Positions 8,444 through 25,307 of a stretch of DNA of 64,000 bases are shown here, piece by piece; position 1 is the first letter of the stretch; every line of letters begins with the position of its first letter. A program made the translations under genes and the position numbers. This stretch comes from a virus (taxonomy: Duplodnaviria > Caudoviricetes): positions 2,053-66,052 of the IMG/VR virus record IMGVR_UViG_3300021090_000017; one strand, 5' to 3'. The notes under the pieces are model-generated. The model was not told the DNA's origin, made no database searches, and saw nothing but the letters and a program-made list of their open reading frames with translations.

Positions 8444-8754
8444 TTCCCCTCCAATATATCTATTTTATCTAAAAGATTTTTTAATAAAATCTTTCCATAT
8501 TTTAATTCTTTATAACCAATTTCTATTTTAATATCTTCTAAATTCATAATATTTAAAATAGCTTCAAATCTTTTATTTATTCCATTTAAATAATCAATAG
8601 AAAAAATATAGTCAATTGATACTTCATGTCCTGATTTTAATAAACTAATCTCTGATTGGTTTTCTAATATATTAATAGATTTATTTATAATATCTCTATT
8701 ATTATCAGAGATATCAAGTTTAATATTTATAGTAATTTTTTCTTCTCTACTCAT
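8440..8754 (-). CDS. Hypothetical protein
   Basis: ORF overlapping both neighbours. Confidence 0.5.
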   Translation of the reverse strand: MSREEKITINIKLDISDNNRDIINKSINILENQSEISLLKSGHEVSIDYIFSIDYLNGINKRFEAILNIMNLEDIKIEIGYKELKYGKILLKNLLDKIDILEGK

Positions 8755-9166
8755 TATTAACTCCTAAACTATTCAAAATTTCTTTATCTATTTCTTTAGC
8801 TAAATGATCTGACATAGATTGTATCATTTCCTGTTCTACATCAACTCCTTGAAATGCTTTCAAATCTGCGACAGCATCTAAAGACCAATTAGTTCTAAAA
8901 CCTTTCCTCTTTGGTCTATTATATAACTTATCTAACCACTCAACTTTTCCAGTACCATTACAAAAACTACATTTATTATTATCTCTAACATCTTTAAAAT
9001 TAGGATCTGCTCCAGTGCCATTACACTTATTACATTCTTCAAGACAGTCTTCTTCTTTTGTTATACCCTTAATATTTACAGTAGTCATATTTAAAGTTTT
9101 TTGCCCCCACAATGTAACACCTCCTGATGGAATTTTAATTGGATTAATACTACTATCATAAATCAT
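8747..9166 (-). CDS. Zn-finger protein carrying tail-sheath and major-capsid fragments
   Basis: aa1-25 YDSSINPI..GG..WGQKTL (gp18-like); CxxCxGxG x2 + KVEW; aa87-134 RTNWSLDAVADLKAFQGVDVEQEM..EIDKEIL (gp23-like). Confidence 0.75.
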   Translation of the reverse strand: MIYDSSINPIKIPSGGVTLWGQKTLNMTTVNIKGITKEEDCLEECNKCNGTGADPNFKDVRDNNKCSFCNGTGKVEWLDKLYNRPKRKGFRTNWSLDAVADLKAFQGVDVEQEMIQSMSDHLAKEIDKEILNSLGVNNE

Positions 9167-10548
9167 TAAAACCCCAATATCCTTTCGTTTGTTAAATTCT
9201 TAAACTCATCTTTAGCTAAGAATTTATTTACTATAGACTTACAATAATCTTCATCTAATGACTTCAATAACTCTAATGAAGTCACAACACTATTTGTCTT
9301 TGAAGTTTGTTTTTTTGTTATCTTACCACCATTCAAATTTCTAATAGTTATTTCAACATTAGTATTAAATTCATCTATATTACCAGACCTATATAATTCA
9401 TAACTATTATCCACAAACTTTCTCATCTCTTCTTGAACTCTTGAATATAAGTCTAAAGACTGAAGCATTAAATATACTTTAACATCTTCATGAAATGTTC
9501 CTGTTTCTGTACTATAAACTTCAAAAGGTTTAGGAATTGACTTCATATTATGTCTTGAGCATATTTCGTCTAAATGAATTTCAAGTACATCATTAACCTT
9601 AAGATCATTTTTATATCTTAAATATAACTCATTTGTTCTTAAATCAATCTTTTTAATAATACCATCATCATATATAAAAAGTCTTCTGCCAATCATTAAA
9701 CCTTTAAATAGCCCAGAAGAATCATAAGTAATATTTAATTCAATTCCATGACATTCTAAAACATGCTTTCTAAATAACTCATATACTAATACATCTCTAA
9801 AATTAGCACCACCTAAAACATGAAAGTCTAAATACCTTCTTCCATATTTTTTTGCTTGATTTAGTAAAGGTATTAATGGCAGAATATAAATTAGACACGG
9901 TATATTTGAATCTGAAGATGCATTAGCTACGATACCTCCAGTACCATGATGTTGGAAATCATTAAACATATCATCTTTATGAAGTATGTCAGTGAAAATT
10001 CTCCATAACTCAGGAGTTCTGAAGTGATGAATATATATAATTTTATCTCTAACATTTTTAGGAAGTTGTCTAGCGGTATTATATGACCTTAAATTAAAAT
10101 CATGCACATCATTAAAGTCATGGAAGATTGGGCAATTAGGACCTGGCGGAACATCTAAAATAAAAGCTCTATCATATACATCTACATGATCTACAAGAAA
10201 TTTATAATACATTTCAAATAGAAGTTTGGTTTCTTCTCTTGTTAATTCTCCAATAGATATTTGGAAACCACCAGAGTCTACATGAAATAATGAATTATCA
10301 GCTAGTTTAGTATCTCTACAAATTTTAAAAAGGTTAGCTTCTTGTTCATTATAGTTTGCATACTTTTTCTTTCCTTTAAAATTTTGTCCAAAACTATGTA
10401 ATCCACCAGTTATAGTATCGCCCAAAAAATTTGAGATATCTTGTCTAGTGAATTGGTTATCAAATCTTCCTTTTTTATTCAATAAAAAACTATTAATAAT
10501 TGTATATAACGTTTCCATCCCAGCAACTATATATCCAGATCTAAGCAT
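9166..10548 (-). CDS. TGT/DpdA-like transglycosylase
   Basis: VDSGGFQI, FILDVPP, FHVLG, TYDSS motifs of the TGT fold; QueE and QueC in window. Confidence 0.75.
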   Translation of the reverse strand: MLRSGYIVAGMETLYTIINSFLLNKKGRFDNQFTRQDISNFLGDTITGGLHSFGQNFKGKKKYANYNEQEANLFKICRDTKLADNSLFHVDSGGFQISIGELTREETKLLFEMYYKFLVDHVDVYDRAFILDVPPGPNCPIFHDFNDVHDFNLRSYNTARQLPKNVRDKIIYIHHFRTPELWRIFTDILHKDDMFNDFQHHGTGGIVANASSDSNIPCLIYILPLIPLLNQAKKYGRRYLDFHVLGGANFRDVLVYELFRKHVLECHGIELNITYDSSGLFKGLMIGRRLFIYDDGIIKKIDLRTNELYLRYKNDLKVNDVLEIHLDEICSRHNMKSIPKPFEVYSTETGTFHEDVKVYLMLQSLDLYSRVQEEMRKFVDNSYELYRSGNIDEFNTNVEITIRNLNGGKITKKQTSKTNSVVTSLELLKSLDEDYCKSIVNKFLAKDEFKNLTNERILGF

Positions 10549-10614
10549 TATTTGCTCCTTCGATAGATTTCATAAATTCAATTTATAATATGTTCTTATA
10601 CTATTTAAATAGAT

Positions 10615-11091
10615 CTAGGTCAGTTTTATATTTAATTTAATAGTTTCTAAACTTTTATTTGGTTTTAAATTTATAATTATTTCATTTCCAGTAGGTATAA
10701 CTATTACATCATAATCTAATAATCCCTTTCTATGTTTTAAATTATCTAACATACTAATAACATTATATTCAACAATTTTCATATTCTTATTATCATTAAG
10801 TTCAAACGTTAAATCTTTAACACTATTCTCAATTTCTTTTTGAACATAGTTTACTAAATGTCTTACGTTAACATTATCTAAAGCAGAAGGATTTTTATTT
10901 TCTTTTCCTACTATATTTTCTATCCAATCTAATTTACCAGTTCCTTTACATTTAGGACAAAAATTTGCAGTGGAGTATTCTTTTAAAATACCTACTCCAC
11001 TGCAAATTTCACAATGTTTTTCACCTTCATTTAACTCTGCTTTATCTAACTCTTTATCTACTTTCAAAAAACTTTTGAGTATGCCGCTCAT
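10615..11091 (-). CDS. Zn-finger protein fused to tail-sheath C-terminal domain fragment
   Basis: EGEKHCEICSGVG..CPKCKGTGKLDW then SALDNVNVRHL..FELND..KGLLDYDV..LKPNKSLETIKL (gp18 C-terminal motifs). Confidence 0.78.
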   Translation of the reverse strand: MSGILKSFLKVDKELDKAELNEGEKHCEICSGVGILKEYSTANFCPKCKGTGKLDWIENIVGKENKNPSALDNVNVRHLVNYVQKEIENSVKDLTFELNDNKNMKIVEYNVISMLDNLKHRKGLLDYDVIVIPTGNEIIINLKPNKSLETIKLNIKLT

Positions 11092-11840
11092 AGTACAAGC
11101 ATCTCCGGATTCTTATCTAACAGTTTATTAAACTCTTCCTTATCAAGCATTACACCATTATCAACTGAAATTTTTAGAATGTTTAATGCGTTGGCCAATG
11201 GGAAATATTGCTCATAAATATGAATCCCATCACTATATGCAATAATAGGTCCATCTTCAACATCCATATGATCTTTAATAATTGATAATACATATTCTTT
11301 TAATAGTTGAAGGCCGCCTAGATTCTCTGGCATTCCTGCATACAAATCCCATGATCTAAAGAATACAGTCATATATAATTTTTTTTCAGCTACCTTGAAT
11401 GATACAAGTCTTAAACAAGGAGGATCTTGTAAGAATGTAGTACTTACATCTCCAATAGCAATGGTAGCTTGATTAGTGTTTCCTTTAGCTTTAATTAGAA
11501 GTTCAATTACTCTTTCTAATTGTTTAGTAATAAATTCTCCATATGTATATTGCTCGTTCTCAGTCTTTCTATCAGATAATATATATCTTTCAAAATATTC
11601 AATTATTTTAGTTTCATCAGTAGAACCTGAAACACCAGGAGGAAGAATTGGGGCTAAAGGTCTATGCCAAGGTTCATTTATTTTAATATGAACATCTGTT
11701 AATTGACGTCTAATTTGTCCTTGATATGATCCACCTTTAACAACAAAATCCCATCCATTTTTTATACATAGATTCATAACTTCTCTCCATGCATCGGCAA
11801 TAGTTCTATCTTCTACATAATTACAATTTTCAATTATCAT
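11088..11840 (-). CDS. thyA: Thymidylate synthase (archaeal-type ThyA family)
   Basis: YTYGE, DPPCL catalytic Cys, FRSWD..GMPEN, HIYE. Confidence 0.8.
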   Translation of the reverse strand: MIIENCNYVEDRTIADAWREVMNLCIKNGWDFVVKGGSYQGQIRRQLTDVHIKINEPWHRPLAPILPPGVSGSTDETKIIEYFERYILSDRKTENEQYTYGEFITKQLERVIELLIKAKGNTNQATIAIGDVSTTFLQDPPCLRLVSFKVAEKKLYMTVFFRSWDLYAGMPENLGGLQLLKEYVLSIIKDHMDVEDGPIIAYSDGIHIYEQYFPLANALNILKISVDNGVMLDKEEFNKLLDKNPEMLVL

Positions 11841-11843
11841 TTT

Positions 11844-12383
11844 TTACAACTCCCTCATTATAAATTGTGATTCAAAATGTAATGTAACAATTTTTGCTAT
11901 ATTAGAAATATTTTCTTTTGTTGCATCTTGTTCTATATAAGGTATTTCATTATCATTCAAAAGATTTTTAATATCAATATCTAATTCTCTAGCTTCCATT
12001 TCAGTTTGCAATCTTCCTGTTTTTACATAAGCTTTTTTTCTATTAAGGAAAATATTAATATTATTAAATCTATTAAACTCTTGAAGAACGAGATTTTTAA
12101 AAATCTCGTTCTTCTCTTTATCATATATAATAGAAAATAAAATAGGACTGTCAGTAAGTATAACATCTACTTGATCTTTAAGTCTCCAAATTCTATGTAG
12201 TTGTTTACCAAATACATAAATTTGATTTTCTAATTTTTTATTACTGCCTTCCCATACAACATCTTTAGCATATTCAGTAACAATTTCACAATTGATACCT
12301 TTCCATTTTAATTCAGAAAATACTGCCGCAGATGTTGTAGACTTTCCTGTACCAGGTCCAGCAAAGAAGTTAACTACTATCAT
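11844..12383 (-). CDS. P-loop kinase/ATPase (AAA_28/NadR-like)
   Basis: AGPGTGKST, TEYAKD, TDSP, GRLQTE. Confidence 0.75.
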   Translation of the reverse strand: MIVVNFFAGPGTGKSTTSAAVFSELKWKGINCEIVTEYAKDVVWEGSNKKLENQIYVFGKQLHRIWRLKDQVDVILTDSPILFSIIYDKEKNEIFKNLVLQEFNRFNNINIFLNRKKAYVKTGRLQTEMEARELDIDIKNLLNDNEIPYIEQDATKENISNIAKIVTLHFESQFIMREL

Positions 12384-12607
12384 TTATCATCCTCACTTAT
12401 TTTAAAACCTAAAGTGGAGCTAGATTTAGTATCTAGCTCCACTCTATTTTCTGTAAACCAAACTGTAGGAGTGGGCATCCCATCCTTTAAATGCTCTTGT
12501 TCAACACCAATATCTGTAGCTCCATAAAGATGTTCAGTTTTGGAAATAACTACTCCTGAGAATCCAGTCAATTTACATATAACTTTATCACCTAACTTTA
12601 TAGTCAT
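12380..12607 (-). CDS. Conserved phage hypothetical protein
   Basis: LGDKV..TGFSGVV..TEHLYG..WFTENR pattern recalled from small phage proteins. Confidence 0.6.
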   Translation of the reverse strand: MTIKLGDKVICKLTGFSGVVISKTEHLYGATDIGVEQEHLKDGMPTPTVWFTENRVELDTKSSSTLGFKISEDDK

Positions 12608-12616
12608 TTATGACTC

Positions 12617-12853
12617 CTATACTAAATGAAGTTTTGGTTTTGTTGGTTCATCATCTCTCATTGCTTCTTGTACACTTGACCCACATTTTGAACATATCAT
12701 ATCTGGAATGGGAATAACTCCTTCTTCCCCATTTGGGCTTACTATTTTAGATACCTTCTTTAAAATATTAGCATGTACCCAATATGGGTTTCCACAACTA
12801 CATATAACACTAGGTAGATCTGCAGGATTAATATTAAGTTTAATATTTTCCAT
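12617..12853 (-). CDS. Zinc-ribbon protein
   Basis: CSCG ... CSKCG. Confidence 0.65.
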   Translation of the reverse strand: MENIKLNINPADLPSVICSCGNPYWVHANILKKVSKIVSPNGEEGVIPIPDMICSKCGSSVQEAMRDDEPTKPKLHLV

Positions 12854-13135
12854 TTAATTAACCACCTCGTCTCTAACCACTGCAAAAATTTCAGCAAGCA
12901 TATAACATTTCATAATTTTATCATTTAACATAAATGCTTGCCCGCCATGTTTTGCACAAATAATTGTATCTCCAGGTTTAATAGTTGTAACCTTAGCACC
13001 AACTGAAATTACTAACCCATATGTTTGAGGTTCCTTCTCTGCACCATCTGGAAGAATTATTCCACCTGATGATACCGACTCTTTCTTCATTACTTCTGCA
13101 ACAACCTTATCTTCAATTGCAATAGGTATTCTCAT
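12854..13135 (-). CDS. groES: Co-chaperonin GroES
   Basis: DKVV, SSGGIILPDGAEKEP, GLVISVG, IKPGD; start moved to ATG 13135 behind GGAGGG RBS. Confidence 0.88.
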   Translation of the reverse strand: MRIPIAIEDKVVAEVMKKESVSSGGIILPDGAEKEPQTYGLVISVGAKVTTIKPGDTIICAKHGGQAFMLNDKIMKCYMLAEIFAVVRDEVVN

Positions 13136-13136
13136 T

Positions 13137-13418
13137 TTAACGATCCCTCCTGGTATCAAACTTTTTAGATTCTTCTAGCTTTAATCTCTGAATATTCTCT
13201 CTTCGTTTCCTTGCTTTCTTTATACTAGGTTTCTCATAAAATACTCTATTTCTTACTTCTTGAATGATACCATCTTTTGAAACTTTTCTTTTGAACCTCT
13301 TCATAAGAGTTTCAAAATTTTCTCCTTCTCTTGCTCTGACAATCAAACCATATTCTCCTGCTTCATTGTCTCTTGTGCTATACCTCTGTTTTCTATTGTA
13401 CACTTGAATCATCACCAC
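13137..13418 (-). CDS. rpsU: Ribosomal protein S21 (phage-encoded)
   Basis: VRAREGENFETLMKRFKRKVSKDGIIQEVRNRVFYEKPS..RKRR. Confidence 0.88.
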   Translation of the reverse strand: MVMIQVYNRKQRYSTRDNEAGEYGLIVRAREGENFETLMKRFKRKVSKDGIIQEVRNRVFYEKPSIKKARKRRENIQRLKLEESKKFDTRRDR

Positions 13419-13429
13419 CCTCTCGATTT

Positions 13430-13927
13430 TTAAATTGTATTTTTTACTACTATTCCATCTTCATCTATTACCATAGTTCTAATTCCTAAATCAGTACTTA
13501 TCCTTACTCCTTGCATAGTTCCACCAGACATATTTTTTGGTAAAGCAACTACTAAATCTGCTTTATATACTATAATATAATTTCTCGAATGTAATAATAT
13601 AGCTCCTGGGCTACAAGCTTTTGGTGCTGGATGATATTTATAAACAGATTCCGTTGCTTCTTGTTTAGTTTTTTCATCTAAAACCTTATCTGAAATTATC
13701 TCAGTGCAATAAGTTTGGGTTTGAAGATTATATTTTCTCCAAGGAACTACTCCAATAGTTTTAAATCCTAAATCTTTTGCCTTCTTAATTGCTATCTCAT
13801 CTACTCCATCACAACACCCAGAAATAATTTCTGCAGATGTAGAATCAATAGAAATTAAAAAATTTTCTATAAATTTAATTTGCTCTAATGTCGGATTTCT
13901 AGTTCCTATAATAGCTATTCTTTTCAT
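13430..13927 (-). CDS. SLOG-family protein (DprA/Smf-like)
   Basis: IAIIGTR, ISGCCDGVD, HSRN, GGTMQG; probable start ATG 13927 just after QueE stop. Confidence 0.7.
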   Translation of the reverse strand: MKRIAIIGTRNPTLEQIKFIENFLISIDSTSAEIISGCCDGVDEIAIKKAKDLGFKTIGVVPWRKYNLQTQTYCTEIISDKVLDEKTKQEATESVYKYHPAPKACSPGAILLHSRNYIIVYKADLVVALPKNMSGGTMQGVRISTDLGIRTMVIDEDGIVVKNTI

Positions 13928-13928
13928 A

Positions 13929-14627
13929 TTATATAAATGAATATATGATGTGTTCTCTACTAGTAAATCCAAATTTATATTCTTCACACTTATCAAATAC
14001 ATAACTTGAATTTTTAATTAGTTCATCATGTGTTCTTCCTTCTGGCATTAAGAAAACTCTTTGATGAGGATACTGACCTAGATTTGAACTGAATGAAAGA
14101 TATGAATCTAACCAGTGTAAATAATCATTTACTAATGCATTATCTTCACATACTAATTTAATAAATACATTATCATGGGTTGACATTAAATCAGTAGTCA
14201 TTTTTTTAACTTCATTTAATTCTTCTTGAGAGAAAAATTTAGGAGAGAATAAAAATGTTATTTTATTTATATTAGATATTTTTTTACACTCTTCAATTAA
14301 ATTAAGAAGAGCATATCCATTAGATTCAACATTAGCAATAGGATATCTTAGTTTAGTTAGTAAGTCTAAAGTTGAATTAAAGTTATCTCCAAATGTAGGT
14401 TCCCCACCTGTAATCATTAAACCAGCTGACTCTTCATCAATAGTTTTTTGAAGGTCAATTAAATTATAATCAGACTCTAAAGAGATTCTCATCTTAACCA
14501 TAGTATCACAATATCTACAAACTCTGTTACAGGTTTTAAATCTTGTGATTAACATTCTTCGACCAGTGTCAGGACCTTCTCCTTGCCAACTAGTCATACA
14601 TTCAATTAGCTTAATAGTATCACTCAT
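13929..14627 (-). CDS. queE: 7-carboxy-7-deazaguanine synthase (radical SAM)
   Basis: SWQGEG, RFKTCNRVCRYCDT, ITGGEP, VESNG, SPK, LMPEG. Confidence 0.85.
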   Translation of the reverse strand: MSDTIKLIECMTSWQGEGPDTGRRMLITRFKTCNRVCRYCDTMVKMRISLESDYNLIDLQKTIDEESAGLMITGGEPTFGDNFNSTLDLLTKLRYPIANVESNGYALLNLIEECKKISNINKITFLFSPKFFSQEELNEVKKMTTDLMSTHDNVFIKLVCEDNALVNDYLHWLDSYLSFSSNLGQYPHQRVFLMPEGRTHDELIKNSSYVFDKCEEYKFGFTSREHIIYSFI

Positions 14628-15367: not shown

Positions 15368-18300
15368 CTAAAAAGTAAGTACTTCATTTTTCTTTTTAAC
15401 TTCCATAATAGGTTCTAATAATAAATTATATCTATCTGTCCATGAAAATGTTAACATTGCTTTTCTATCAGGAATAAAATAATCAGGTAATTTACTTTCT
15501 TCATCAGGAACAGCAATAATTTCTAACTTCTTTCCTTTTGCAATAAACTCTTTATTATATCTTTCTACTACATCTTTTGGAGCCTTATCTAAATCTATTG
15601 CAGCAATCTTATAAAGATATCCTCTTGATCCCTGTCTGAATATATCATATACTAGATTGTTCCAATTTTGCATTGCTATTACACCTGGAGGAATTCTCTT
15701 ATAATCTTCTTCATCCTTAGTAAATGAAACTGGTCTTGATATAGTTTTATTTCCAGACATAATTCTAGTTACAAATTCTTTCTCTTTTCCATTTACATAT
15801 TCATTAATTCTTGATATAGATATCTTTTCAGTCTTTAAAATAATATCTAATAGTTCTCTCAAACATTCCTTAGTATATGATGGGAAGTCTGATCTCTTAA
15901 TCTCAACACCCATAGCTGTCATTTCATCAGTAGGTTTCTTTTCCTGTTCTATAACATGTAATGCATATCTCTTTTTAGCTAAGAATAATCCACGTCTAAT
16001 AACTAACTCATTTTTTAATGCTAATCTATTTCTTTTAATATCAACATTTTTCATAGTTACAATTGGAGGAATAATTATCTTATTTAAAAAGGTTTCAATT
16101 TCCTCATTCCATTTAGTAACATCTTTTAATATATCTTCTTTAGATTTATTTCTATCAACAACATTATTATAAGTAGCAAATAGTGAATCAGTATCACCAG
16201 TAATAATATAAGGAGTCTTTCTTACAACATCACCATACATTTCTTGAACCGTTAATTTTTCAACTGTTTCTTTTATTCCAGTCTTAATTTTTCCTACATA
16301 ACTATTGCCTTCAAGTATAGCTGCCTTGATTGCTTCTTGACCACTTAATGTAACCGACCTACCACAATCTCTATCGAAGAACCGGAAGGAAGCATTACCT
16401 AGGACTCCGTACATCGCGTTTGCGAGGATCTTATATACTTGTTGACGTGTGTTATACAGAAGCCTAGCTGACTCGTCCTTTGCCTGTTTTGCTTCAAACA
16501 TCTTATTTTTATAAACTTTTCTTGATGATAAAAGTAGGTCAAGAATCTCAGAATAGAATGATAACTCAGAGTCATGATTTTTAAATAAACACCCACTTAT
16601 AGTTAAAATAGATTTTTCATCTTCTATTCTTTTTATTAAATCTTCTTTTCTTACAACAACTTCTGTCTTAGCGAAAGTAGGATCTAAAATTAAAGGAATT
16701 ACATCAGGAAGTTTATCTCTATCATAATGGAAATAATATGCATGATCTGTAATTTTCATCTTTGCTAATAATGTATTAATCCCTATATTATAAGTTAGAA
16801 TTAAACTTGGATATAGAGATGCAAAGTCAAAGTCTACTATCCAATCATTAATACCAACAATAGGAGCTTTAACAAATGCACCCTCAAATTTAGTACTAGA
16901 ACCATGTTCAGAATTCTTAGCTGCAAATCCTTTTTCTTTTAAATATGAAATTGATAATGAGTCAATTCTTCCAAACGGAGATGCTGATCCTCTGAATGTA
17001 GTTTTGCAAATATTCTTCAATTCATTTTGAAGTGCTATATGTTTCTTTCCTTTTAATTCTTTCCCATTACCTTCTTCTAATTCCACACAAATATTAACGT
17101 CTCTAATGTTATATTCAATTGCTTCATTAATATCTCTTACATATTTCTTTGCAAATGGTTCTCCAGAGTCTAACTTTTCTTTATTCAACTCTATCTTTGC
17201 AATAGTTCCTAATCTATAATTTTCTCTCTTAGTCATTTCAAATTCTTTATATAACATAAGTTGGTCAAGAATTGTTAATCCGCTAACACTTGCATAACCT
17301 GACTCACTCTCAATATATGCATCATTTAATGGAGATAAGGTCTGCTGTTGAATTCCTAATTTTTTCATTCTATTGAATAGATATGCTAAATCGAAATTTA
17401 TTACATTCCATCCAGTTAAAATATCAGGTTGTAAACTTCTCATATCTCTTATAAAGTTATTAACTAATTCATTCTCATTTTTACATACTATAATTTTAGC
17501 GTTTTGGCTTTGTTTAATAACTTGAGTTGAATTTTTTATAATCTCTTTATGATCGATTACATAAACTATATATTCTCCATGATAATAATATGATAAAATT
17601 ACTATTGGATAATTTGCTTCCTCTGCTTCCGGGAACTTATCATCATGAGTATAAACCTCAATATCAAGAAACATTACATTGAAATCTATTACCTTAGCTT
17701 CTTCTTTATTTAAAATGAAATAATCCATTGCTCTCTTAACACTTAACTTAATATCACCTTCATATGTTATGGTTGGGTCTAACATTTTCTTTTGACGATA
17801 TGGAAGTTTAATTCTATTTAGATCATCAAACTTAACAATCTTTCTAGCCTCAATTTCCTTTGGCGCTTGATAACAATAGTAATCATCATTTGTTTTATGA
17901 TAAACTTTATTATTCTTTTCATCTCTAAACATATACACACATTCATTAGTCTTGCTAATAAAATGAACATCTACCAATCTGAATTTATCTGTATAATATT
18001 GCTCAGGTATTTTATAATGCCAAACTCCCTTTTCTTTACTATCAGTATTAGTATTTAATAATACTTCCTTGGCTCCAAAGAACTCAGATACTTTTCTAAT
18101 ATCTTCATCAAACTTCTCTTCAAAAGTTCTATTCCTATTTACAAAAGATGGATGTACTGTAAGCAACACATCAAACTCTTTCCATTTAAAAAACTGCCCA
18201 CGAATATTAGTTATACCTGCTTTTCCAATTCCAAATGCTGACATCGGACTTGTACCTAATAGAACTACTAATTTAGGCTTACAAGTTTCAATAATATTGA

Positions 18301-18628
18301 AACAATTAACTTTACATAATTCAATAGTATCTTCATCTGGGTTTCCTGTTGTCCCATCATCTAAAATAGTTTGACATAGAACCGTATTTGTAAGTAGATA
18401 GTTTAATTTATCTATTCCATGTTTTTTGAAGTACTTCCTGAAGGTTTGTCCTGCTTTGCCTATTAGAGGGGTTCCTGTTTTTACTTCTTCTTTTCCAGGA
18501 TTTTCTGCTATGAAAATCACATCTACTTTAGTCAAATCATTTTCACAATTTGTTTCTAGTATACAACTTGGTTGGTCTAATAACTTACATTTTGAACAGT
18601 CTGCAATAGAAGATTTTATACTGAACAT
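15368..18628 (-). CDS. Family B DNA polymerase with N-terminal family-4 uracil-DNA glycosylase domain
   Basis: UDG: CSKC, FIAENPG, TNTVLC, TVHPS; Exo: FLDIE, GWNVINFD, YNIRD; Pol: DFASLYPS, KILANAMYG, GDTDS, KKRY. Confidence 0.92.
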   Translation of the reverse strand: MFSIKSSIADCSKCKLLDQPSCILETNCENDLTKVDVIFIAENPGKEEVKTGTPLIGKAGQTFRKYFKKHGIDKLNYLLTNTVLCQTILDDGTTGNPDEDTIELCKVNCFNIIETCKPKLVVLLGTSPMSAFGIGKAGITNIRGQFFKWKEFDVLLTVHPSFVNRNRTFEEKFDEDIRKVSEFFGAKEVLLNTNTDSKEKGVWHYKIPEQYYTDKFRLVDVHFISKTNECVYMFRDEKNNKVYHKTNDDYYCYQAPKEIEARKIVKFDDLNRIKLPYRQKKMLDPTITYEGDIKLSVKRAMDYFILNKEEAKVIDFNVMFLDIEVYTHDDKFPEAEEANYPIVILSYYYHGEYIVYVIDHKEIIKNSTQVIKQSQNAKIIVCKNENELVNNFIRDMRSLQPDILTGWNVINFDLAYLFNRMKKLGIQQQTLSPLNDAYIESESGYASVSGLTILDQLMLYKEFEMTKRENYRLGTIAKIELNKEKLDSGEPFAKKYVRDINEAIEYNIRDVNICVELEEGNGKELKGKKHIALQNELKNICKTTFRGSASPFGRIDSLSISYLKEKGFAAKNSEHGSSTKFEGAFVKAPIVGINDWIVDFDFASLYPSLILTYNIGINTLLAKMKITDHAYYFHYDRDKLPDVIPLILDPTFAKTEVVVRKEDLIKRIEDEKSILTISGCLFKNHDSELSFYSEILDLLLSSRKVYKNKMFEAKQAKDESARLLYNTRQQVYKILANAMYGVLGNASFRFFDRDCGRSVTLSGQEAIKAAILEGNSYVGKIKTGIKETVEKLTVQEMYGDVVRKTPYIITGDTDSLFATYNNVVDRNKSKEDILKDVTKWNEEIETFLNKIIIPPIVTMKNVDIKRNRLALKNELVIRRGLFLAKKRYALHVIEQEKKPTDEMTAMGVEIKRSDFPSYTKECLRELLDIILKTEKISISRINEYVNGKEKEFVTRIMSGNKTISRPVSFTKDEEDYKRIPPGVIAMQNWNNLVYDIFRQGSRGYLYKIAAIDLDKAPKDVVERYNKEFIAKGKKLEIIAVPDEESKLPDYFIPDRKAMLTFSWTDRYNLLLEPIMEVKKKNEVLTF

Positions 18629-18814: not shown

Positions 18815-19555
18815 ATGGAGCAGATGATTCGTGCAGCATCTAAGCAGTTGGGCGTGGAAGATGTTAATAACTCAGTCCAGATCCAGGAATTCTTCGAACG
18901 ATCCAAAAAAACAGAAGACGATAAACGTGCAAGAAACTTTCTTTTGACAAGTATCGTCGAATCACAGCTTCAGCAGGGAGACGGACAGTTTTACTCGCTT
19001 CTGATGCCGTGGAGTACTTGCACCACCTGCCATGGTCTCGGGCAGAAAGTCGAAATCAAGATGGAGAAGGTTCCTGTTCGTTGTCACTTTTGTGAAGGAA
19101 CCGGTATCAAAACTGTCATATGCAAATCGTGTCATGGTGATGGCACCAACCCCGACGGAACCAAATGCAAGACGTGCAAAGGAACCGGCAAGTATCGATA
19201 CTATGGGATCGAAGGACGTGATCAGAAACCCTGCCCCAACTGCACGCCTCGGAAACCTTGCCCTTCATGTAATGGCGAGAAGGGCAAAAAGGACTGCGAC
19301 CAATGTCATGGTTCGGGCCGGATATATCTTGAAACGAAAGGATCCGGACAAGTCATGGCCATGACTTCGGCGAGAAAGATCAACAAAACATTCTTCTGCG
19401 GTCACTGCCACGGTACCGGAAAAGCGAAGGAGCCTACCAATCCTGTGATGTCGGCGGAAAGGGCTAAGGTTATTTCCGATGCAGTCGCTGATTCAACTGC
19501 TGTAGCAAAACTCAAGAAGTCAGCGAAGAAGGCTCTTTCACATCAGGAGAAATAA
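18815..19555 (+). CDS. Multi-CxxCxGxG zinc-finger protein (DnaJ-type Cys repeats, no J domain)
   Basis: About eight CxxC repeats, most as CxxCxG; GC-richer codons than flanks; class I promoter motif upstream. Confidence 0.75.
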   Translation: MEQMIRAASKQLGVEDVNNSVQIQEFFERSKKTEDDKRARNFLLTSIVESQLQQGDGQFYSLLMPWSTCTTCHGLGQKVEIKMEKVPVRCHFCEGTGIKTVICKSCHGDGTNPDGTKCKTCKGTGKYRYYGIEGRDQKPCPNCTPRKPCPSCNGEKGKKDCDQCHGSGRIYLETKGSGQVMAMTSARKINKTFFCGHCHGTGKAKEPTNPVMSAERAKVISDAVADSTAVAKLKKSAKKALSHQEK

Positions 19556-19557
19556 GG

Positions 19558-19678: not shown

Positions 19679-19692
19679 GCAGTTTATAAAGT

Positions 19693-19718: not shown

Positions 19719-20235
19719 ATTGTATTTTAATCATTTTAAAATGATCTGAAAGATATCTCTGTAATGATTTATCTATACCTTTCGGATCTTTTTTTGTCGA
19801 TTTAATTTTTTCTTTCTTAGGATCATCAATACCAAATGAACTATATATTTTATTTGAATCATCTGACTTCTCTATTATATCACATAATAAAGAAATATCA
19901 TCATTTTTTAAAAATGAAATTCTACTTCTTAATTTATCATATAGTTTAGTCTTCCTCTTTGGGTATGATATATAATGTAAAGTATTCTTTTGAATTTTAA
20001 AGTCTAAAACACACTTTTTAATAAATTGAAATAACTCTTCTTTTTCGATATATCTTAGACCAATATTATTCATATAAGTATCTAGATAATGATTTAATTT
20101 ACCATTCTTTACAAATATACCAATAAGATATGTAGCAGTAATTGGAGAATTATATTTTAATAAAACTTCTCTATCTGGTATTGGAGACTTTATATCTCCA
20201 TCAAATAACCATTTTGAAAATGTCTTATATGGCAT
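19717..20235 (-). CDS. Hypothetical protein, possibly gp62-like clamp-loader small subunit
   Basis: Size, helical pattern and proximity to polymerase only. Confidence 0.35.
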   Translation of the reverse strand: MPYKTFSKWLFDGDIKSPIPDREVLLKYNSPITATYLIGIFVKNGKLNHYLDTYMNNIGLRYIEKEELFQFIKKCVLDFKIQKNTLHYISYPKRKTKLYDKLRSRISFLKNDDISLLCDIIEKSDDSNKIYSSFGIDDPKKEKIKSTKKDPKGIDKSLQRYLSDHFKMIKIQ

Positions 20236-21166
20236 TCATTTCTCCTATTATCTTTCTATAAAAGTTATCAATAATATATTGATTTATTAAAGTAGGAACT
20301 ATCATTTTATTATCTAATACATTCTTTACTTTTTCTATCGCTTCTTCATTATTACTATACAAAAAATCATCTGGCAATAATTCTGGATATGAAAAACTTC
20401 TTGGTGCAATAGGAATACATCCATTATAAACTGCATCTAAAACTTGATACCCAAAGGTTTCAGCTGAACTGCTTATAAATAAGCATTTAGATTTAGATAA
20501 AAATTTATAATATTGTTCCCAACTATTAAATGAGTTTCTAACTATTTTAGTATTAAAGTGAGATTCAATTATCTCTTCTAACTCTAAATTTACTTTTTGT
20601 TTAGTTGGTCTTGATACATTAACTATATCATATTCTTTAGGTTCATTATAATTAGAATAGGTATGTTTAGGCAAACCAGTTACTACTGTATTTCGTTCCC
20701 AGTCCCAACCTAAAAATTCTTTGTGATATTTAGTTGCTACAAATACTTTATTAAATAAAATTGAATTTCCAGTTTCTACTTTCCATTTAGATCTTTCATT
20801 TTCAGAAAAATAGTCATAAGCATTTTTTGAAGTAGCATGACAAATAGCATAACAATGTTTAGGTTTCTTATGATATAATACATTACTAAATAAACCTGGA
20901 AAACTAATGTCATTTAAAAGGAGAATATCATCATGTCTTAACTCCATACTATTATATTTCCATATTTGATAATTTTCAAAATTAATAGATTCTTTAATAG
21001 GTGAGAACATTTCTTCTTTAGATTTACTTATTATATTATCTGGGTAATCATCTCCTAAAACCTCTACCTCAAATACACTTGATAGTTGAGAAATAAATTC
21101 ATGATACCACCATTCTTGATATCTCATTGGAGTTGGGTATTGTGGTACTAATATAAGTCTTCTCAT
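20225..21166 (-). CDS. Glycosyltransferase (GT-B, GT4-like)
   Basis: MRYQEWW, SSAETFGYQVLDA, PIAPRSFSYPEL. Confidence 0.75.
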   Translation of the reverse strand: MRRLILVPQYPTPMRYQEWWYHEFISQLSSVFEVEVLGDDYPDNIISKSKEEMFSPIKESINFENYQIWKYNSMELRHDDILLLNDISFPGLFSNVLYHKKPKHCYAICHATSKNAYDYFSENERSKWKVETGNSILFNKVFVATKYHKEFLGWDWERNTVVTGLPKHTYSNYNEPKEYDIVNVSRPTKQKVNLELEEIIESHFNTKIVRNSFNSWEQYYKFLSKSKCLFISSSAETFGYQVLDAVYNGCIPIAPRSFSYPELLPDDFLYSNNEEAIEKVKNVLDNKMIVPTLINQYIIDNFYRKIIGEMNAI

Positions 21167-21175
21167 TTTATCTCC

Positions 21176-21412
21176 TTAACACCCACATTGTCTTTCATCT
21201 TTTTCTTTTTTATCTAACCCTTTTAAGTAATATGGTTCACATACCATTATATGATAATTAATAATACTTACAAAAAAATGTTTTTTACAATATTTACATT
21301 GAACACAACCGCATTTACAATCTTTAATTTCAGATCCATATTCATGACATTTACATAAACATTGAGCAGGTAGACCATACATAGTTAATTTCCTATTCCT
21401 TTTTTCTTCCAA
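21176..21412 (-). CDS. Cys-rich hypothetical protein
   Basis: CLCKCH, CKCGC, CKYC. Confidence 0.45.
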   Translation of the reverse strand: MEEKRNRKLTMYGLPAQCLCKCHEYGSEIKDCKCGCVQCKYCKKHFFVSIINYHIMVCEPYYLKGLDKKEKDERQCGC

Positions 21413-21621
21413 CTATAATTTCCATACCAATTTATTCCTATTAAAACTACAGCTTGTAATAACAAAAAATAATGCTTTTTATCAATAGCAAAAAGTATCC
21501 AAAACAATTGAGACCATGTTGCTATTCCATAACCAATTCTTTTAGGTATTGAAAGAAAAGCAACAGCTACAAAAGTTAAAATTGTAGCTGTTGCTTCATA
21601 ACCATTTACTTGAATATCCAT
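21385..21621 (-). CDS. Small membrane protein (PnuC-like fragment)
   Basis: Three hydrophobic segments, ..INWYGNYSWKK end. Confidence 0.5.
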   Translation of the reverse strand: MDIQVNGYEATATILTFVAVAFLSIPKRIGYGIATWSQLFWILFAIDKKHYFLLLQAVVLIGINWYGNYSWKKKGIGN

Positions 21622-22079
21622 TTATTGTATCCTTCAAACAATACATATTTCTTTTCCCATTCCCAAAGTGATTTCTGGGATGGATATACTTTATCTAATA
21701 ATTCATTTTTACCACCTGGGTTCATTACTTCATGAATATAAGGTGCATTCATATTAGTTGTATAAAATATTATATTCATTCCTTTTCTTGCCATTGATTC
21801 CCCTATAGCCCCCATCGCTCTATGATCAGGATGAGATTCATATGTATGGTCAGGAAAATAAAATATAGATTCTGGGCTTAGTATATGGGAAGGAATACTT
21901 TTCAAAAAGAATTGAGCTTTAAGTTCTACATGATTCTTTAATGATAATGCTTCCTCTTGTCTTATCCTAGGTACATCAGATGTATAAACAATAATAGGTT
22001 TTTTGGTTATCAATATTTCATAACAACCAATTATTTCATCATCTGGGTGCGGAGCAATTATTATATGTTGTTCAGACAT
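21606..22079 (-). CDS. PIG-L family deacetylase
   Basis: IAPHPDDEIIGC, RQEEA, HPDH, YPSQ. Confidence 0.85.
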   Translation of the reverse strand: MSEQHIIIAPHPDDEIIGCYEILITKKPIIVYTSDVPRIRQEEALSLKNHVELKAQFFLKSIPSHILSPESIFYFPDHTYESHPDHRAMGAIGESMARKGMNIIFYTTNMNAPYIHEVMNPGGKNELLDKVYPSQKSLWEWEKKYVLFEGYNKWIFK

Positions 22080-22846
22080 TAGTTCTCCTTAATAAATTCA
22101 AAAATTTTATTCTTTAAAATTTCTATATTTTTTATTTCATAATCCCAAATAACTAAACATTCATAACCATGTTTATTAAAATAATCTTTTCTTTCATATT
22201 CATGTATATATTCTTCTTTACCAGTTATTTCTTTGCTATGCCAATATTGACCAAATACTTCTACTATTTGTTTTCGATTTTTGTCAATAAAGTCAGGATT
22301 TTTACTTCCTATCCAAAAGGTATAATCACCAGTAAATTCAAATCTATCTGGAAGAATATTTCTAATAAATTTCTCTAAATTATTTATTTCCTTTTTTCTA
22401 TTTGTTTCTAGAGATTTATTATGTTTCTCTATTCTACTTTCTTCTTTCCAACTTTCAATAATATTGTTTCTATGTTTTTCTTTAATATCTGGTTTTTTAA
22501 ATTCTTCTATTTTTCTAATTCTATTTTTTTCTTTATTAATCGGGCATTTATTTATATGATCTGAGCACCAATATGAATTTTTAAATTTATATTTTGCTAA
22601 TTGTTTACATCCATTAGAGCAAAATATATCATTATTATCTTCTAATAAAATTGGTTTAGTTTTCTTAATACCTTTCATATTAGAACTCATTTTTTCTATT
22701 GTTTCTCTACTATGTTTTCTTCCAGTATTAGAATTTTTATTTTTAGATTTTAAAACTGGGCATTGATTTCTTGATTCTTTACAACAATATTTTCCATTTA
22801 AAAATTTAAATTTTGCTTCATTCCCACACCCATATGTACATAGCAT
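22079..22846 (-). CDS. Free-standing homing endonuclease (Cys repeats + NUMOD3 + Vsr/DUF559-like nuclease)
   Basis: CxxGC repeats x2, TGRKHSRETIEKMS, NPDF..IVEVFGQYWH..CLVIW. Confidence 0.75.
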   Translation of the reverse strand: MLCTYGCGNEAKFKFLNGKYCCKESRNQCPVLKSKNKNSNTGRKHSRETIEKMSSNMKGIKKTKPILLEDNNDIFCSNGCKQLAKYKFKNSYWCSDHINKCPINKEKNRIRKIEEFKKPDIKEKHRNNIIESWKEESRIEKHNKSLETNRKKEINNLEKFIRNILPDRFEFTGDYTFWIGSKNPDFIDKNRKQIVEVFGQYWHSKEITGKEEYIHEYERKDYFNKHGYECLVIWDYEIKNIEILKNKIFEFIKEN

Positions 22847-22855
22847 ATTAAAATT

Positions 22856-22897
22856 TCCTTTATATTTAGATTTTATATATGTTCTAAATATAAAGGA
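22856..22897 (-). promoter_or_regulatory. RBS-sequestering hairpin with class II promoter in its loop
   Basis: Perfect 15-bp inverted repeat tcctttatatttaga (22856-22870)/tctaaatataaagga (22883-22897). Confidence 0.75.
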
Positions 22898-22915
22898 GTA
22901 TGGATACTTAATGAA

Positions 22916-23392
22916 TTAGATGTGAGGTAATGTATTTATAATATGATATAACTCCATTTTAGCATCCGAATGATTCATGAAATCACCAAATAAACTACTA
23001 ACAAACATCTTATCAACATAATACAATACAGCCACACCTTCTACAACTCCACGCTTCTTTGAATTGTAATGAGTGCAAATCCTATCAGACATAAAGCCAG
23101 TAAAGTTTCTAATCTTCTGAATATTATTAGTAATCATTCCTGCTGCTTCTGCTTCATCAATAACATCATGAACAACTATATCTAGATCTTCCAAACTCCA
23201 ATCACAAATCAAACCAATATAAAGTGGAAATCCTAGTCTAGTATATTTCCTTACAATGAGTGGTGAATATGATTTATCAATAAGCTTTGTTGCAACTTCT
23301 CCATCTTCCATTCCCATTCTTCCCTCACTAATATTCTTTAGAACTTCTTTCTTATCTGCACTCATTTGTTTCTCCTTTAGTGTAAAGATCAA
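22916..23392 (-). CDS. Hypothetical protein
   Basis: ORF; start probably MSADKK. Confidence 0.55.
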   Translation of the reverse strand: MIFTLKEKQMSADKKEVLKNISEGRMGMEDGEVATKLIDKSYSPLIVRKYTRLGFPLYIGLICDWSLEDLDIVVHDVIDEAEAAGMITNNIQKIRNFTGFMSDRICTHYNSKKRGVVEGVAVLYYVDKMFVSSLFGDFMNHSDAKMELYHIINTLPHI

Positions 23393-23597
23393 TCATCTTG
23401 TTATAAGTTACCTCAATTGTTTTTGCTAAATCATTAGAATTCCATGGTCCATTTCTAGCTTGACTTTTTGCAATATCTGCAGCAAAACTTAAAAAATTAA
23501 ATTTGTATTCATTAGTTATTTCACTCATTCGATTCTCCTTAAAATTAAAAATAGATTTATAATATGTTCTTATATTACTTTTTAGGTTCCAAATCAT
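23352..23597 (-). CDS. Hypothetical protein
   Basis: ORF; start probably MSEITNE behind AGGAG and class II motif. Confidence 0.5.
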   Translation of the reverse strand: MIWNLKSNIRTYYKSIFNFKENRMSEITNEYKFNFLSFAADIAKSQARNGPWNSNDLAKTIEVTYNKMIDLYTKGETNECR

Positions 23598-24423
23598 TTA
23601 TTATGATACTATTTATACATTCTTCTATTGATTCAAATCCAAATGATATATGACTAACAACCCATGGATCATTCATAACTTTATCATTATTAGATATTAA
23701 ATACACAGGAATCTTATTTTCATAAGCATATATAATCTCACATATTGTGCCGGCTGTATATTGCTGAACATATGCTACTACTACATCACATTTCTTTATT
23801 AACTCTTTATCATCATGTACTAATTTAATATGTTGTGAAAAATCTTTACAATTATCTAAATCAATATTTAAATCAACTTCTTCCATTGGATCTCTAATTA
23901 TAATTCTATTATCATCTTTTACTAAATGTTTAAACTTCCTTCTATATTGAGTTGCTGATGTAGTACCGGCTAGATAGATTTGAATTTTATCTTTCTTTGT
24001 ATTATCTATCTCTTTAATATTAACTCCAGGATGCTCTTTTGACATAAATGTTTTATCTTCATGTAACATAACTGGTTTATTTTTAGCCACAAAATTTGTT
24101 CCAGTTAAAATTCTATCATCGAGTTCATTATGAGTATCACAATAATTTAGAAGTGTAAAACACCCCCAAGCAGCATGGGCTAAGTGATTCTTCCCACTCT
24201 CTGGATCATTATTTTCTCCTTCCCAAAATGAATTTAAATGCCTTTGTAAAGCTCCATAAATTCTACTCCATTTAATTCCTTTTCTCCAGTTATGATCTTC
24301 ATACTTCTTAGCGCCGAATGTATAAATCTCAACTAACTGTCTTAATGAATCTGCAGGAACTAAATCATATCTTAGCTTATCCTGGTCAAATTTAACTCCC
24401 TCTTTCAATTTTTCTTCAGCCAT
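23575..24423 (-). CDS. dATP/dGTP diphosphohydrolase-like (DUF5664) fused to nucleoside 2-deoxyribosyltransferase-like domain
   Basis: GVKFDQDKLRYDL, GAKKY..NWRKG, DPESG..HLAHAA; C-terminal IYLAG, CDVVVA, GTICE. Confidence 0.75.
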   Translation of the reverse strand: MAEEKLKEGVKFDQDKLRYDLVPADSLRQLVEIYTFGAKKYEDHNWRKGIKWSRIYGALQRHLNSFWEGENNDPESGKNHLAHAAWGCFTLLNYCDTHNELDDRILTGTNFVAKNKPVMLHEDKTFMSKEHPGVNIKEIDNTKKDKIQIYLAGTTSATQYRRKFKHLVKDDNRIIIRDPMEEVDLNIDLDNCKDFSQHIKLVHDDKELIKKCDVVVAYVQQYTAGTICEIIYAYENKIPVYLISNNDKVMNDPWVVSHISFGFESIEECINSIIINDLEPKK

Positions 24424-24737
24424 TTCACAATATCCTCCTTGTATTCAATTACATCTTCACATGGTTTTTCAAATCCTAACATCTTTGCTATTCTCTCTAC
24501 TGACTCTTTTGATATTGCTGTTGCTAAATAATTATCAGGTATTATAGTTACTGGCATATATGGAGCATATATCAATCCACTTTGCATTCTCTTGCCAGTA
24601 ATTTTTTCAGTCCAAGTTAATTTACCTGTATTAAGACATCTACTACAAAACCATTTAGTTGTCTTTACTCCATTTTCAAATTCTTTTAAACCACCACATT
24701 CATCACAAAGAATTTCACCTTCTTCTAGTTCCATCAT
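24405..24737 (-). CDS. Zn-finger protein with major-capsid motif
   Basis: EGEILCDECGG..CSRCLNTGKLTW then SGLIYAPYMPV (gp23 DAGIYYAPYV motif). Confidence 0.7.
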   Translation of the reverse strand: MMELEEGEILCDECGGLKEFENGVKTTKWFCSRCLNTGKLTWTEKITGKRMQSGLIYAPYMPVTIIPDNYLATAISKESVERIAKMLGFEKPCEDVIEYKEDIVKWLKKN

Positions 24738-24742
24738 ATCAT

Positions 24743-24979
24743 TTAAAACATGCTAAAAGGATTATGCTTATAAGTCGTTGTAGTTCCTGCCCATTCAGCT
24801 TTAATTGGTCTCTTCCCTGTAATAGATTCAACCCAATCAAGCTTTTTAAAACCTAAACATTTAGGACAAGTAGATTCATATCCAGTACGGAAATCTACTA
24901 TATAACCAAAACCTTCACACTTACTACAATTAAATAATTCTTCATTTACTATCTTTATATCAGGAGAACCTTCAACCAT
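24743..24979 (-). CDS. Zn-finger protein, same family, no recognisable cargo
   Basis: CSKCEGFG..CPKCLGFKKLDWVESITG. Confidence 0.7.
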   Translation of the reverse strand: MVEGSPDIKIVNEELFNCSKCEGFGYIVDFRTGYESTCPKCLGFKKLDWVESITGKRPIKAEWAGTTTTYKHNPFSMF

Positions 24980-25307
24980 TTAATTCATCTTCCTTATTTT
25001 CAAATTTTGGTTTCATAAAATTAGCTACACTATATGGTTTATCCATAGGTTGAACAGATACTATTTGATTTGCAACTAAATTAGGAAACATTACTCTAGT
25101 TAATGGTAATGTAAAATTCGCAAATTTATTTTTAGATACACCACATATAACTTCAGTCCAAGTTAATTTTTTTTCACCCATACAATGAGTGCAAAAATTC
25201 CAAATCTTCATTACCTCATTATTATCTAATAACCCAGTACCTTTACAAACTGGGCATATTATTTCACCTTCTTGTAATACATGTTTATCTTTAATATTAT
25301 AATTCAT
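24972..25307 (-). CDS. Zn-finger protein with major-capsid N-terminal motif
   Basis: EGEIICPVCKGTG..CTHCMGEKKLTW then LPLTRVMFPNLVANQIVSVQPMDKP (gp23 VRRAIPNLIAFDICGVQPMNSP). Confidence 0.78.
   Translation of the reverse strand: MNYNIKDKHVLQEGEIICPVCKGTGLLDNNEVMKIWNFCTHCMGEKKLTWTEVICGVSKNKFANFTLPLTRVMFPNLVANQIVSVQPMDKPYSVANFMKPKFENKEDELNG

Follow-up and report, generated by a model that had tools for sequence, protein, structure and literature searches.

Anti-TRAP (RtpA) is a bacterial regulator of tryptophan genes of about 50 residues, in which two CxxCxGxG-type knuckles surround one zinc, and it acts by protein binding. It is oligomeric, and two of its PDB entry titles mention dodecamers. 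The cysteine-rich domain of DnaJ and the protein BSD2 possess CxxCxGxG zinc knuckles too, four of them with two zinc sites. BSD2 is a small assembly chaperone which stays on the subunit core until the last subunit arrives. In the chaperone-usher donor-strand complementation of PapD and FimC, the helper supplies the strand of a neighbouring subunit and blocks premature polymerisation. T4 gp25 and TssE (PDB 5IW9) are initiators of sheath polymerisation with a small stand-alone handshake-domain fold, which forms a platform for sheath strands. The Gol region is a 29-residue part of T4 gp23 which binds EF-Tu and triggers the Lit protease, and it is described as the most conserved part of gp23 (PMC3014915). 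Here, a family of small phage proteins named ZnF-W carriers was analyzed in a 64,000-base stretch of viral DNA, called the window (positions 2,053 to 66,052 of the IMG/VR record IMGVR_UViG_3300021090_000017). The carriers are small accessory proteins encoded by a single clade of T4-like jumbo phages with genomes of ~300 kb and are composed of a constant handle and a variable cargo. As judged from alignments, a large minority of them have as cargo a diverged copy of part of a virion protein of the same phage.

The source record has 66,052 bases and was rated 21% complete by CheckV, giving a genome of ~300 kb. The window has a G+C content of 28.4% and encodes a family-B DNA polymerase which is 27-29% identical to T4-type phage polymerases; it is part of a ~300-kb T4-like jumbo phage genome. 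A regular expression for two knuckles plus tryptophan was run on all six frames (ORFs of at least 40 aa) and gave exactly seven matches, all in the carriers named A to G. All seven minus-strand ORFs listed by the first-pass annotation were present, as was the single module which it had described as common to them. The module consensus is L-x-E-G-E-x-x-C-x-x-C-x-G-x-G ... C-x-x-C-x-G-x-G-K-L-D-W, with C, C, G, C, C and W as invariant columns in the alignment of the seven modules. The handle thus spans about 45 residues, two CxxCxGxG knuckles and a short Trp-bearing helix with the consensus KLDW-IENIVGK, and is predicted to bind a single zinc. On this basis, a ZnF-W carrier is defined here as a small phage ORF with two Cys-x-x-Cys knuckles and a hydrophobic-x-Trp helix after the second of them, and all seven window ORFs fall within the definition. 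Positions below are on the minus strand unless the plus strand is named. Carrier A (8747-9166, 139 aa) has a sheath-like N-terminal piece, the module (8936-9034) and a capsid spine-helix piece. Carrier B (10615-11091, 158 aa) has the module (10924-11013) followed by a complete sheath C-terminal domain. Carrier C (24405-24737, 110 aa) has the module and a tail which opens with a capsid C-terminal strand motif, and carrier E (24972-25307, 111 aa) has the module and a capsid N-terminal piece. In carrier D (24743-24979, 78 aa) the module is followed by a 29-aa tail. Carrier F (61640-61975, 111 aa; homologue P0053) has a 65-aa leader with no parent found and a C-terminal module, and carrier G (62423-62629, 68 aa) is a bare module. 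Interleaved with F and G, the region 61211-63224 also encodes a second family of Cys-rich mini-proteins of 60-90 aa ending in hydrophobic-x-Trp, which may be related to the handle.

Full-length capsid and sheath genes are absent from the whole 66-kb contig in a profile search, and the references were therefore taken from relatives. The polymerase as query retrieved 11 related IMG/VR loci with 27-88% identity. Full capsid genes (483-484 aa) were found in three of five and then in five of five related records, and a sheath gene in one of five; the capsid of record G005 and the sheath of record G004 served as references. The relative G006, a complete genome of 277 kb with terminal repeats, supplied 273 ORFs of at least 120 aa as the target of blind searches; its capsid gene is at 215501-216955 and its sheath gene at 29124-31106.

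In Pfam, residues 89-134 of A match positions 149-194 of the 376 positions of Gp23 (PF07068) with 34.3 bits, and residues 61-107 of E match positions 3-49 with 29.1 bits, both above the cut-off of 24.4. These two carriers account for both Gp23 matches on the whole contig. They are capsid fragments and not capsid proteins, as the full capsid proteins of the relatives span Gp23 positions 8-349. In directed BLASTP against the G005 capsid, the E cargo (25002-25130) aligned with residues 76-118 (42% identity over 43 residues, E-value 5e-13), the A cargo (8753-8935) with residues 258-318, which form a strand and the spine helix (E-value 2e-9), and residues 49-67 of C (24537-24593) with residues 433-451 (E-value 0.002). 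The three pieces are mutually non-overlapping, in agreement with the first-pass annotation, and we take them to belong to the peripheral domain of the HK97 fold (strands and helix). Against T4 gp23, the A cargo aligned with residues 254-308 (E-value 4e-7), the E cargo with residues 98-120 (E-value 9e-6), and the C cargo gave no match. The comparison of self with foreign parents proposed for these fragments thus places the E cargo nearer to the capsid of its own clade. Gol presumably covers gp23 residues ~93-122, in which case the E alignment would lie inside this conserved N-terminal part. Gol itself sits within the capsid protein, unlike a separate carrier, and no separate Gol-bearing gene is described in the available portion of PMC3014915.

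In blind phmmer searches of the 273 G006 proteins, E and the A cargo each found the capsid protein only (E-values 9.9e-10 and 5.7e-6), and none of 50 shuffles of either scored as well. The C cargo was not significant in this search, with 29 of 40 shuffles equalling its score. The word [IFYL]YAPY occurs just after the linker in four cargos and is confined to three capsid proteins among 332 target proteins. The C piece, weak when taken alone, is kept as a putative capsid copy on the directed BLASTP and this motif count. The clade capsid protein itself aligns with T4 gp23 in BLASTP from the spine-helix block (residue 256 on) through the YAPY strand. Matches of A and E in the phage records RsoM2USA, RAS14 and LR756511 were rejected as carriers, being full-length capsid-type ORFs of 411-491 aa.

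Residues 68-130 of B match positions 3-67 of 104 of Phage_sheath_1C (PF17482) in hmmscan with 27.6 bits (cut-off 26.9), and the genome search extended the match to positions 3-97 with 29.3 bits. It is the sole sheath C-terminal match on the whole contig. The B cargo (10630-10887) aligned with residues 470-562 of the 566-residue G004 sheath (BLASTP E-value 4e-13), and in the blind search of G006 B found the sheath only, with 0 of 50 shuffles as good. B is no whole sheath protein, since only the last ~90 of its 158 residues are sheath-like. Residues 2-24 of A (9095-9163) aligned with G004 sheath residues 442-464 (BLASTP E-value 7e-4), so that the two sheath pieces are consecutive in the parent. 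In the same manner, the first 30 residues of A match positions 782-811 of the PHROG tail sheath phrog_10581 (E-value 0.0047), and the match of B adjoins at 809-876; in general, PHROG profiles bear out the Pfam assignments. The A N-terminal piece was not significant in the blind search of the 273 proteins (6 of 40 shuffles equalled its score); weak alone, it is retained as a candidate sheath copy on the directed comparison. The claim that four ORFs carry a virion piece therefore holds above Pfam cut-offs for A and E (Gp23) and B (sheath), with C as the weak case. Likewise, the two sheath pieces that had been proposed are secure for B by Pfam and BLASTP, and the one on A appears in directed BLASTP and the PHROG match. 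No Pfam virion family was matched by C, D, F or G. In contractile sheaths, the N-terminus of a subunit pairs with the C-terminus of its neighbour, and both augment the C-terminal-domain sheet of a subunit in the next ring; the C-terminal domain is called a 'binding platform' for two neighbouring subunits, and these handshake elements are described as conserved across contractile systems (PMC10457771).

To identify the parents of cargos across the family, 121 surveyed proteins and locus-derived members were pooled, giving 208 proteins with a module, 178 of which had a cargo of at least 20 aa. When each cargo was searched singly with phmmer against 280 proteins (the G006 proteome together with capsid and sheath proteins of the clade), 20 of the 178 had significant matches, which fell on four different proteins: the capsid (14), the sheath (3), a 424-aa G006 protein (2) and the 140-aa neighbour of the latter (1). 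The 424-aa protein is tail-like, with weak matches to virion and minor-tail PHROGs. Shuffled cargos gave no match (0 of 178). After removal of an 8-residue linker, 172 cargos were clustered. In G006 numbering, the profile of the largest cluster (44 members), with a conserved helix motif, matched capsid residues 268-322 (E-value 7e-10), and a cluster of six matched capsid residues 76-114 (3e-18). Eight members matched residues 132-165 of the tail-like protein (2e-7), seven matched the N-terminal arm of the sheath, residues 4-19 (1e-5), and five matched sheath residues 562-659 (6e-17 to the G004 sheath and 2e-15 to that of G006). Profiles of six further clusters with 3-5 members each matched nothing. 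Altogether, 70 of the 172 cargos lie in clusters with a virion or tail-like parent. The term modular display library, used in the first-pass annotation, is supported as far as the constant handle, the exchangeable pieces and their recurrence are concerned, and is overstated with regard to this fraction. Single-sequence searches with the cargos of the eight G006 carriers gave best E-values of 0.003 and 0.06, with shuffles reaching 0.0005, and the parents of these carrier types are clear from the cluster profiles only. A helicase (P-loop) origin of the 'ELYG' cargo type, noticed by eye, was unsupported, as no cluster profile matched DnaB.

The pattern GKLDW[IV]E retrieved 21 loci from IMG/VR, as part of the module search and cargo tally that had been proposed. 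The related records examined were of 33.5-277 kb and 11-100% complete, which suggests genomes of roughly 300 kb, and a Gp23-type capsid gene above cut-off was present in 11 of 15 records (fragments). Module matches numbered 5-9 per record in five large related records and 6, 9, 0, 1 and 7 in five others. The carriers lie in tandem arrays of up to ~9 genes, and some are fused as double carriers; in P0141, both sheath pieces stand behind one handle. The record G001, with a polymerase 73% identical to that of the window, has A-, B- and C-type carriers at the same places, the N-terminal piece of its A-type copy being degenerate. A-like spine-helix carriers also occur in G002, G005, G006, G007, G009, G010 and further contigs, and the carrier loci of G006, G007 and G009 are identical.

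A profile of the seven modules was searched against 1.84 billion representative proteins and gave 2896 matches at E-values of 0.001 or below, 73 of them at 1e-10 or below. The family survey covers the best 150 of the 2896; 152 proteins minus 31 (five window proteins, 25 multi-knuckle proteins and one without the Trp motif) left 121. Among these 121 members, at an E-value of 0.01 or below, the DnaJ knuckle model matched 118, Anti-TRAP 101, Gp23 seven and the sheath C-terminal domain two. The nearest protein-atlas clusters are 100% viral and without names, and the PHROG families matched by members have no annotated function except one Q-like label. With Pfam scores below cut-off in addition, the family is a blind spot of phage annotation. 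Literature searches, with subscription journals and supplements outside their scope, found no description of zinc-knuckle/virion-piece fusions, in line with the statement of the first-pass annotation that it knew of none.

A and E each have one homologue of ~75% identity in a collection of 5.8 billion proteins, with all parts kept. The A homologue P0004 (74% identity) keeps the sheath piece, the module and the capsid piece, with 36 of 44 N-terminal, 30 of 33 module and 33 of 57 cargo residues. Between E and its homologue P0002 (75% identity), 30 of 33 module and 40 of 57 cargo residues are kept, and between B and its homologue P0015, 22 of 30 and 56 of 100. As to the concern that the fusions might be chimeric assemblies, a contig of public run X2 (record 13, 10710-11087) bridges the module-cargo junction of B and one of run X4 (record 23, 8900-9062) that of A. 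Chimeric assembly at the fusion junctions is unlikely, because contigs of independent runs bridge two of them. The dN/dS comparison that had been called for was made against G001, and as synonymous sites are near saturation its values are rough: 0.37 for A (46% amino-acid identity), 0.70 for B (34%), 0.43 for C (37%) and 0.13 for the polymerase (74%).

The handle resembles folds of a protein-binding type. In an AlphaFold2 model of E (95-row alignment), the handle has a pLDDT of 87-95 and the cargo 53-67, a low confidence as may be expected for a segment which needs a partner. The nearest solved folds of the E handle in Foldseek are Anti-TRAP, the DnaJA2 cysteine-rich domain and BSD2 bound to RbcL, with weak E-values of ~0.1, and a sequence profile search of the PDB gave the DnaJ cysteine-rich domain 1EXK (E-value 5e-7) and Anti-TRAP (0.0014). 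Anti-TRAP (PF15777; PDB 2BX9, 3LCZ, 3LD0) was the top Foldseek row, aligned over the whole chain (E-value 0.11, target-normalised TM 0.52, rmsd 5.4). Like the carriers, it has two knuckles around one zinc, an acidic residue two positions before the first cysteine and a helix after the knuckles. Unlike them, it is non-phage and has no cargo; the carriers score 13-18 bits against its 32-bit cut-off, and HMMER leaves the Trp helix motif unaligned. The best PF15777 E-value among the 121 relatives is 1.6e-8. The DnaJ cysteine-rich domain and BSD2 (PF00684, PF25436; PDB 1EXK, 6EKB/6EKC) differ by their four knuckles and two zinc sites, compared with two knuckles and one site in the module; the window carriers reach 16-21 bits with PF00684, under the cut-off of 32.7, and the known DnaJ/BSD2 proteins do not carry a piece of their own client. 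The model of B has a mean pLDDT of 58.5 (5 sequences), with a cargo of two helices and three strands at pLDDT 70-80. Its best Foldseek matches are to tail sheaths, T4 gp18 among them (E-value about 0.01), and T4 gp25 is weaker (0.044). Unlike gp25/TssE, the B cargo is directly homologous in sequence to the C-terminal domain of the sheath and is joined to a zinc handle; it is encoded among nucleotide-metabolism genes, whereas gp25 is in the baseplate module.

Overlapping starts and stops couple the carriers to their neighbours, as had been claimed. By Pfam, the overlap of E is with the end of a gene for dCMP deaminase, that of C with the start of a single gene which is dATP/dGTP diphosphohydrolase plus deoxyribosyltransferase-like, and that of B with the end of a gene of the thymidylate-synthase family; A overlaps the end of a 460-aa ORF. 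This ORF (9166-10548), located between B and A, has no Pfam match at an E-value of 0.001 or below, and in G006 a 468-aa ORF occupies the corresponding position. Downstream of A follow a 104-aa ORF, a DnaB-type helicase gene and then a head module (1-6171) of acidic proteins, a T4-type portal (2125-4101, 76.9 bits) and a prohead-protease fragment (1-309). The head module is on the strand of A, 2.6 kb downstream, and the earlier statement that the carriers lie away from a structural module was wrong. It also has a 592-aa protein with acidic repeats, rich in Pro, Gly, Met and Gln, and a 326-aa acidic protein. A gene for a Cpn10 (GroES-type) co-chaperonin (12854-13159, 45.4 bits) is located 1.8 kb upstream of B. 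G006 has the same gene order: the 468-aa ORF, five carriers with the spine-helix type last, DnaB, portal, protease and capsid protein. In both genomes, the spine-helix carrier is thus near the DnaB-type helicase gene, and the genes for portal and protease, and in G006 also that for the capsid protein, lie downstream of it. The T4 late-promoter word TATAAATA has 41 matches against 29 expected, and none of them is just upstream of A, B or E.

T4 gene 40 is directly upstream of the helicase gene 41, and only this gene position resembles that of the spine-helix carrier near DnaB. Homology with gp40 (PF11113, phrog_999), a head vertex assembly chaperone, was rejected: hhalign gave a probability of 1.9% over 7 columns, PF11113 had no match on the contig of the window, and BLASTP gave no alignment. 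The word KLDW in gp40 was discarded as a sign of kinship, as it is not conserved among nine gp40 homologues.

The architecture, recurrence and parent segments of the carriers are observed; what the proteins do, we infer. The label decoy system goes further than the evidence, which would fit immune decoys, dominant-negative poisons and assembly adaptors alike, the three roles listed by the first-pass annotation. We tentatively favour, with well under even confidence, the reading that they are self-mimics which gate or chaperone the assembly of capsid and sheath. Three features speak for it: the handle is BSD2-like, the spine-helix carrier has a fixed position beside the head genes, and a co-chaperonin gene is close by. 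A detached cargo would act by filling the site that, in a subunit of capsid or sheath or in an intermediate of folding, the same segment normally fills or contacts. The carriers would be made along with the coupled nucleotide-metabolism genes, which in T4 are early or middle genes, and would keep the earliest structural subunits from polymerising off-pathway. The arrival of proper nucleation sites and bulk subunits would then displace them or titrate them out. The handle would make the protein soluble and might also offer a shared surface for docking or oligomerisation. Because the sheath N-terminal strand, C-terminal strand and C-terminal domain are the three elements of the handshake sheet, free sheath subunits would be capped by an arm-carrier or by a domain-carrier such as B; a detached C-terminal domain on a soluble handle could bind and cap free subunits, or serve as a nucleus in the manner of gp25. 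BSD2, which caps cores of the Rubisco large subunit, and the donor-strand chaperones, which cap pilins, would be parallels. The latter (PapD/FimC) differ in that they have an unrelated fold, are periplasmic and provide a strand which is no copy of the subunit's own sequence.

Several points weigh against assembly control. The carriers change much faster than the polymerase (34-46% against 74% identity to G001), and the capsid proteins of the clade look, by eye, far more alike than the cargos do. Fast change with tandem expansion is more typical of arms-race genes, and a conserved partner would predict tighter conservation. The early timing of the carriers is deduced from gene overlap, and the contact between carrier and partner, on which this binding model depends, is a prediction from sequence. 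The capsid pieces are core elements within one subunit and not obvious inter-subunit arms, and because of this the capping picture is weaker for the capsid than for the sheath. No credible family member was found by tblastn with two member queries in 50,697 cultured-phage records, T4 relatives included; the function is therefore no general requirement of T4-type assembly. Frameshifts had been named as a sign against function; the homologues of ~75% identity keep all parts, but the E-type copy of G001 (~1320-1600) is interrupted by a frameshift within an A run, for which a sequencing error, slippage or a recent break may account. Beyond the shift, the downstream frame of this copy still encodes the capsid piece together with the second knuckle and the Trp motif. 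Finally, no parent was found for 102 of the 172 cargos, and in the window no parent of the D tail was found in the blind search of G006.

The fast evolution which disfavours a chaperone role is what a counter-defence role would predict, and a reading of the carriers as immune antagonists or decoys is ranked second, although we consider it rather unlikely. The cargos would copy conserved virion parts that abortive-infection systems sense, and would occupy the sensor, or a host co-factor such as EF-Tu, without activation, the zinc handle blocking the activating step, with the carriers made before the late proteins. A dN/dS as high as 0.7, genes in tandem and a patchy presence of types are typical features of counter-defence genes, and blocks conserved in T4 gp23 are among the copied segments. 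In addition, the E cargo would fall within Gol by the residue numbers assumed above, the carriers are coupled to nucleotide-metabolism genes, and Anti-TRAP, the solved relative, is itself a small protein antagonist. Yet a trigger that is copied faithfully should still act as one, and Gol by itself is described as activating Lit (PMC3014915). The most conserved carrier type is fixed beside the head module across the clade, in a way not expected of a mobile counter-defence gene; these uncultured phages have no known sensor, host or defence system, and the literature searches found no precedent for self-derived trigger fragments. The boldest form of the proposal sees a cassette-like repertoire of self-derived interface mimics on an Anti-TRAP-like zinc handle, competitive ligands which might be pre-emptive antagonists of host sensors and include a Gol-like EF-Tu-binding piece; it is speculative, and we regard it as no likelier than the decoy reading. 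Fast evolution would also suit interference weapons, dominant-negative fragments which poison the capsid or sheath assembly of co-infecting phages, host tailocins or type VI sheaths, with the producer less sensitive. Fragments of polymerising proteins are classic dominant negatives, and the sheath handshake elements are conserved across contractile systems, as noted above. This is improbable to us, since the cargos are closest to the proteins of their own clade, the copied motifs are those least able to differ between self and competitor, and no feature of self-protection was seen.

The large share of cargos which match nothing, together with the bare module of G and the short parentless tail of D, raises the question of whether the cargo matters at all. 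The handle could do the work, for example by binding a protein of host or phage or a nucleic acid, the virion tails being passengers gained and lost by recombination of module genes. The double carriers and the N-terminal remnant of A show frequent in-frame fusion of neighbouring cassettes, and in the A and E homologues the handle is better kept than the cargo. Random capture, however, should also sample replication and metabolic genes, the majority of a 277-kb genome, whereas all 20 significant single-sequence matches were confined to 4 of 280 proteins. Many diverged members, led by the 44 of the spine-helix type with its conserved helix motif, share the same five or six parent segments, and the cargos have stayed in frame, with key residues resembling those of the parent at 26-42% identity. 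Passenger cargos are thus doubtful, less easily believed than decoys and more so than weapons. Least probable of all, we think, is the joining of split domains, in which associating handles would bring the capsid pieces of E, A and C, or the sheath pieces of A and B, into one unit. It draws on the three capsid pieces being strands and helix of what we take to be one HK97-fold domain, on the consecutive sheath pieces of A and B and on the oligomeric state of Anti-TRAP. Association of handles has no support in the analysis, most genomes have only some of the piece types, and neither the single handle of P0141 nor the degenerate N-terminal piece of the G001 A-type copy fits with such an arrangement.

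If the cargos are mimics, the carriers would be natural fragment-based competitive ligands for capsid and sheath interfaces, shuffled as cassettes on one scaffold. Assembly control, if true, would be a new layer by which giant phages with large heads and long sheaths avoid off-pathway polymerisation. If the decoy reading were true instead, it would be a new counter-defence principle of self-derived decoys against sensors of conserved viral proteins, and in its boldest form a strategy of general use, by which a virus blinds pattern recognition with its own trigger fragments. The segments chosen by evolution point to functionally critical parts of gp23-type capsid proteins and sheaths. With parent proteins, exact segments and carriers defined, both readings are testable with synthetic genes.

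Two other proteins of the window possess unusual features. The family-B DNA polymerase (15368-18628) is 1086 aa long, and its alignment with T4-type polymerases begins only at about residue 164-300; the part before it is an extra N-terminal region. On the plus strand, opposite to its surroundings, the interval 18815-19555 forms an island of ~50% G+C in the 28% G+C contig. Its ORF encodes a protein of 246 aa with many CxxCxGxG repeats, which matches DnaJ_CXXCXGXG with 42.2 bits, above the cut-off, and multi-knuckle relatives of this protein were found in related phage records.

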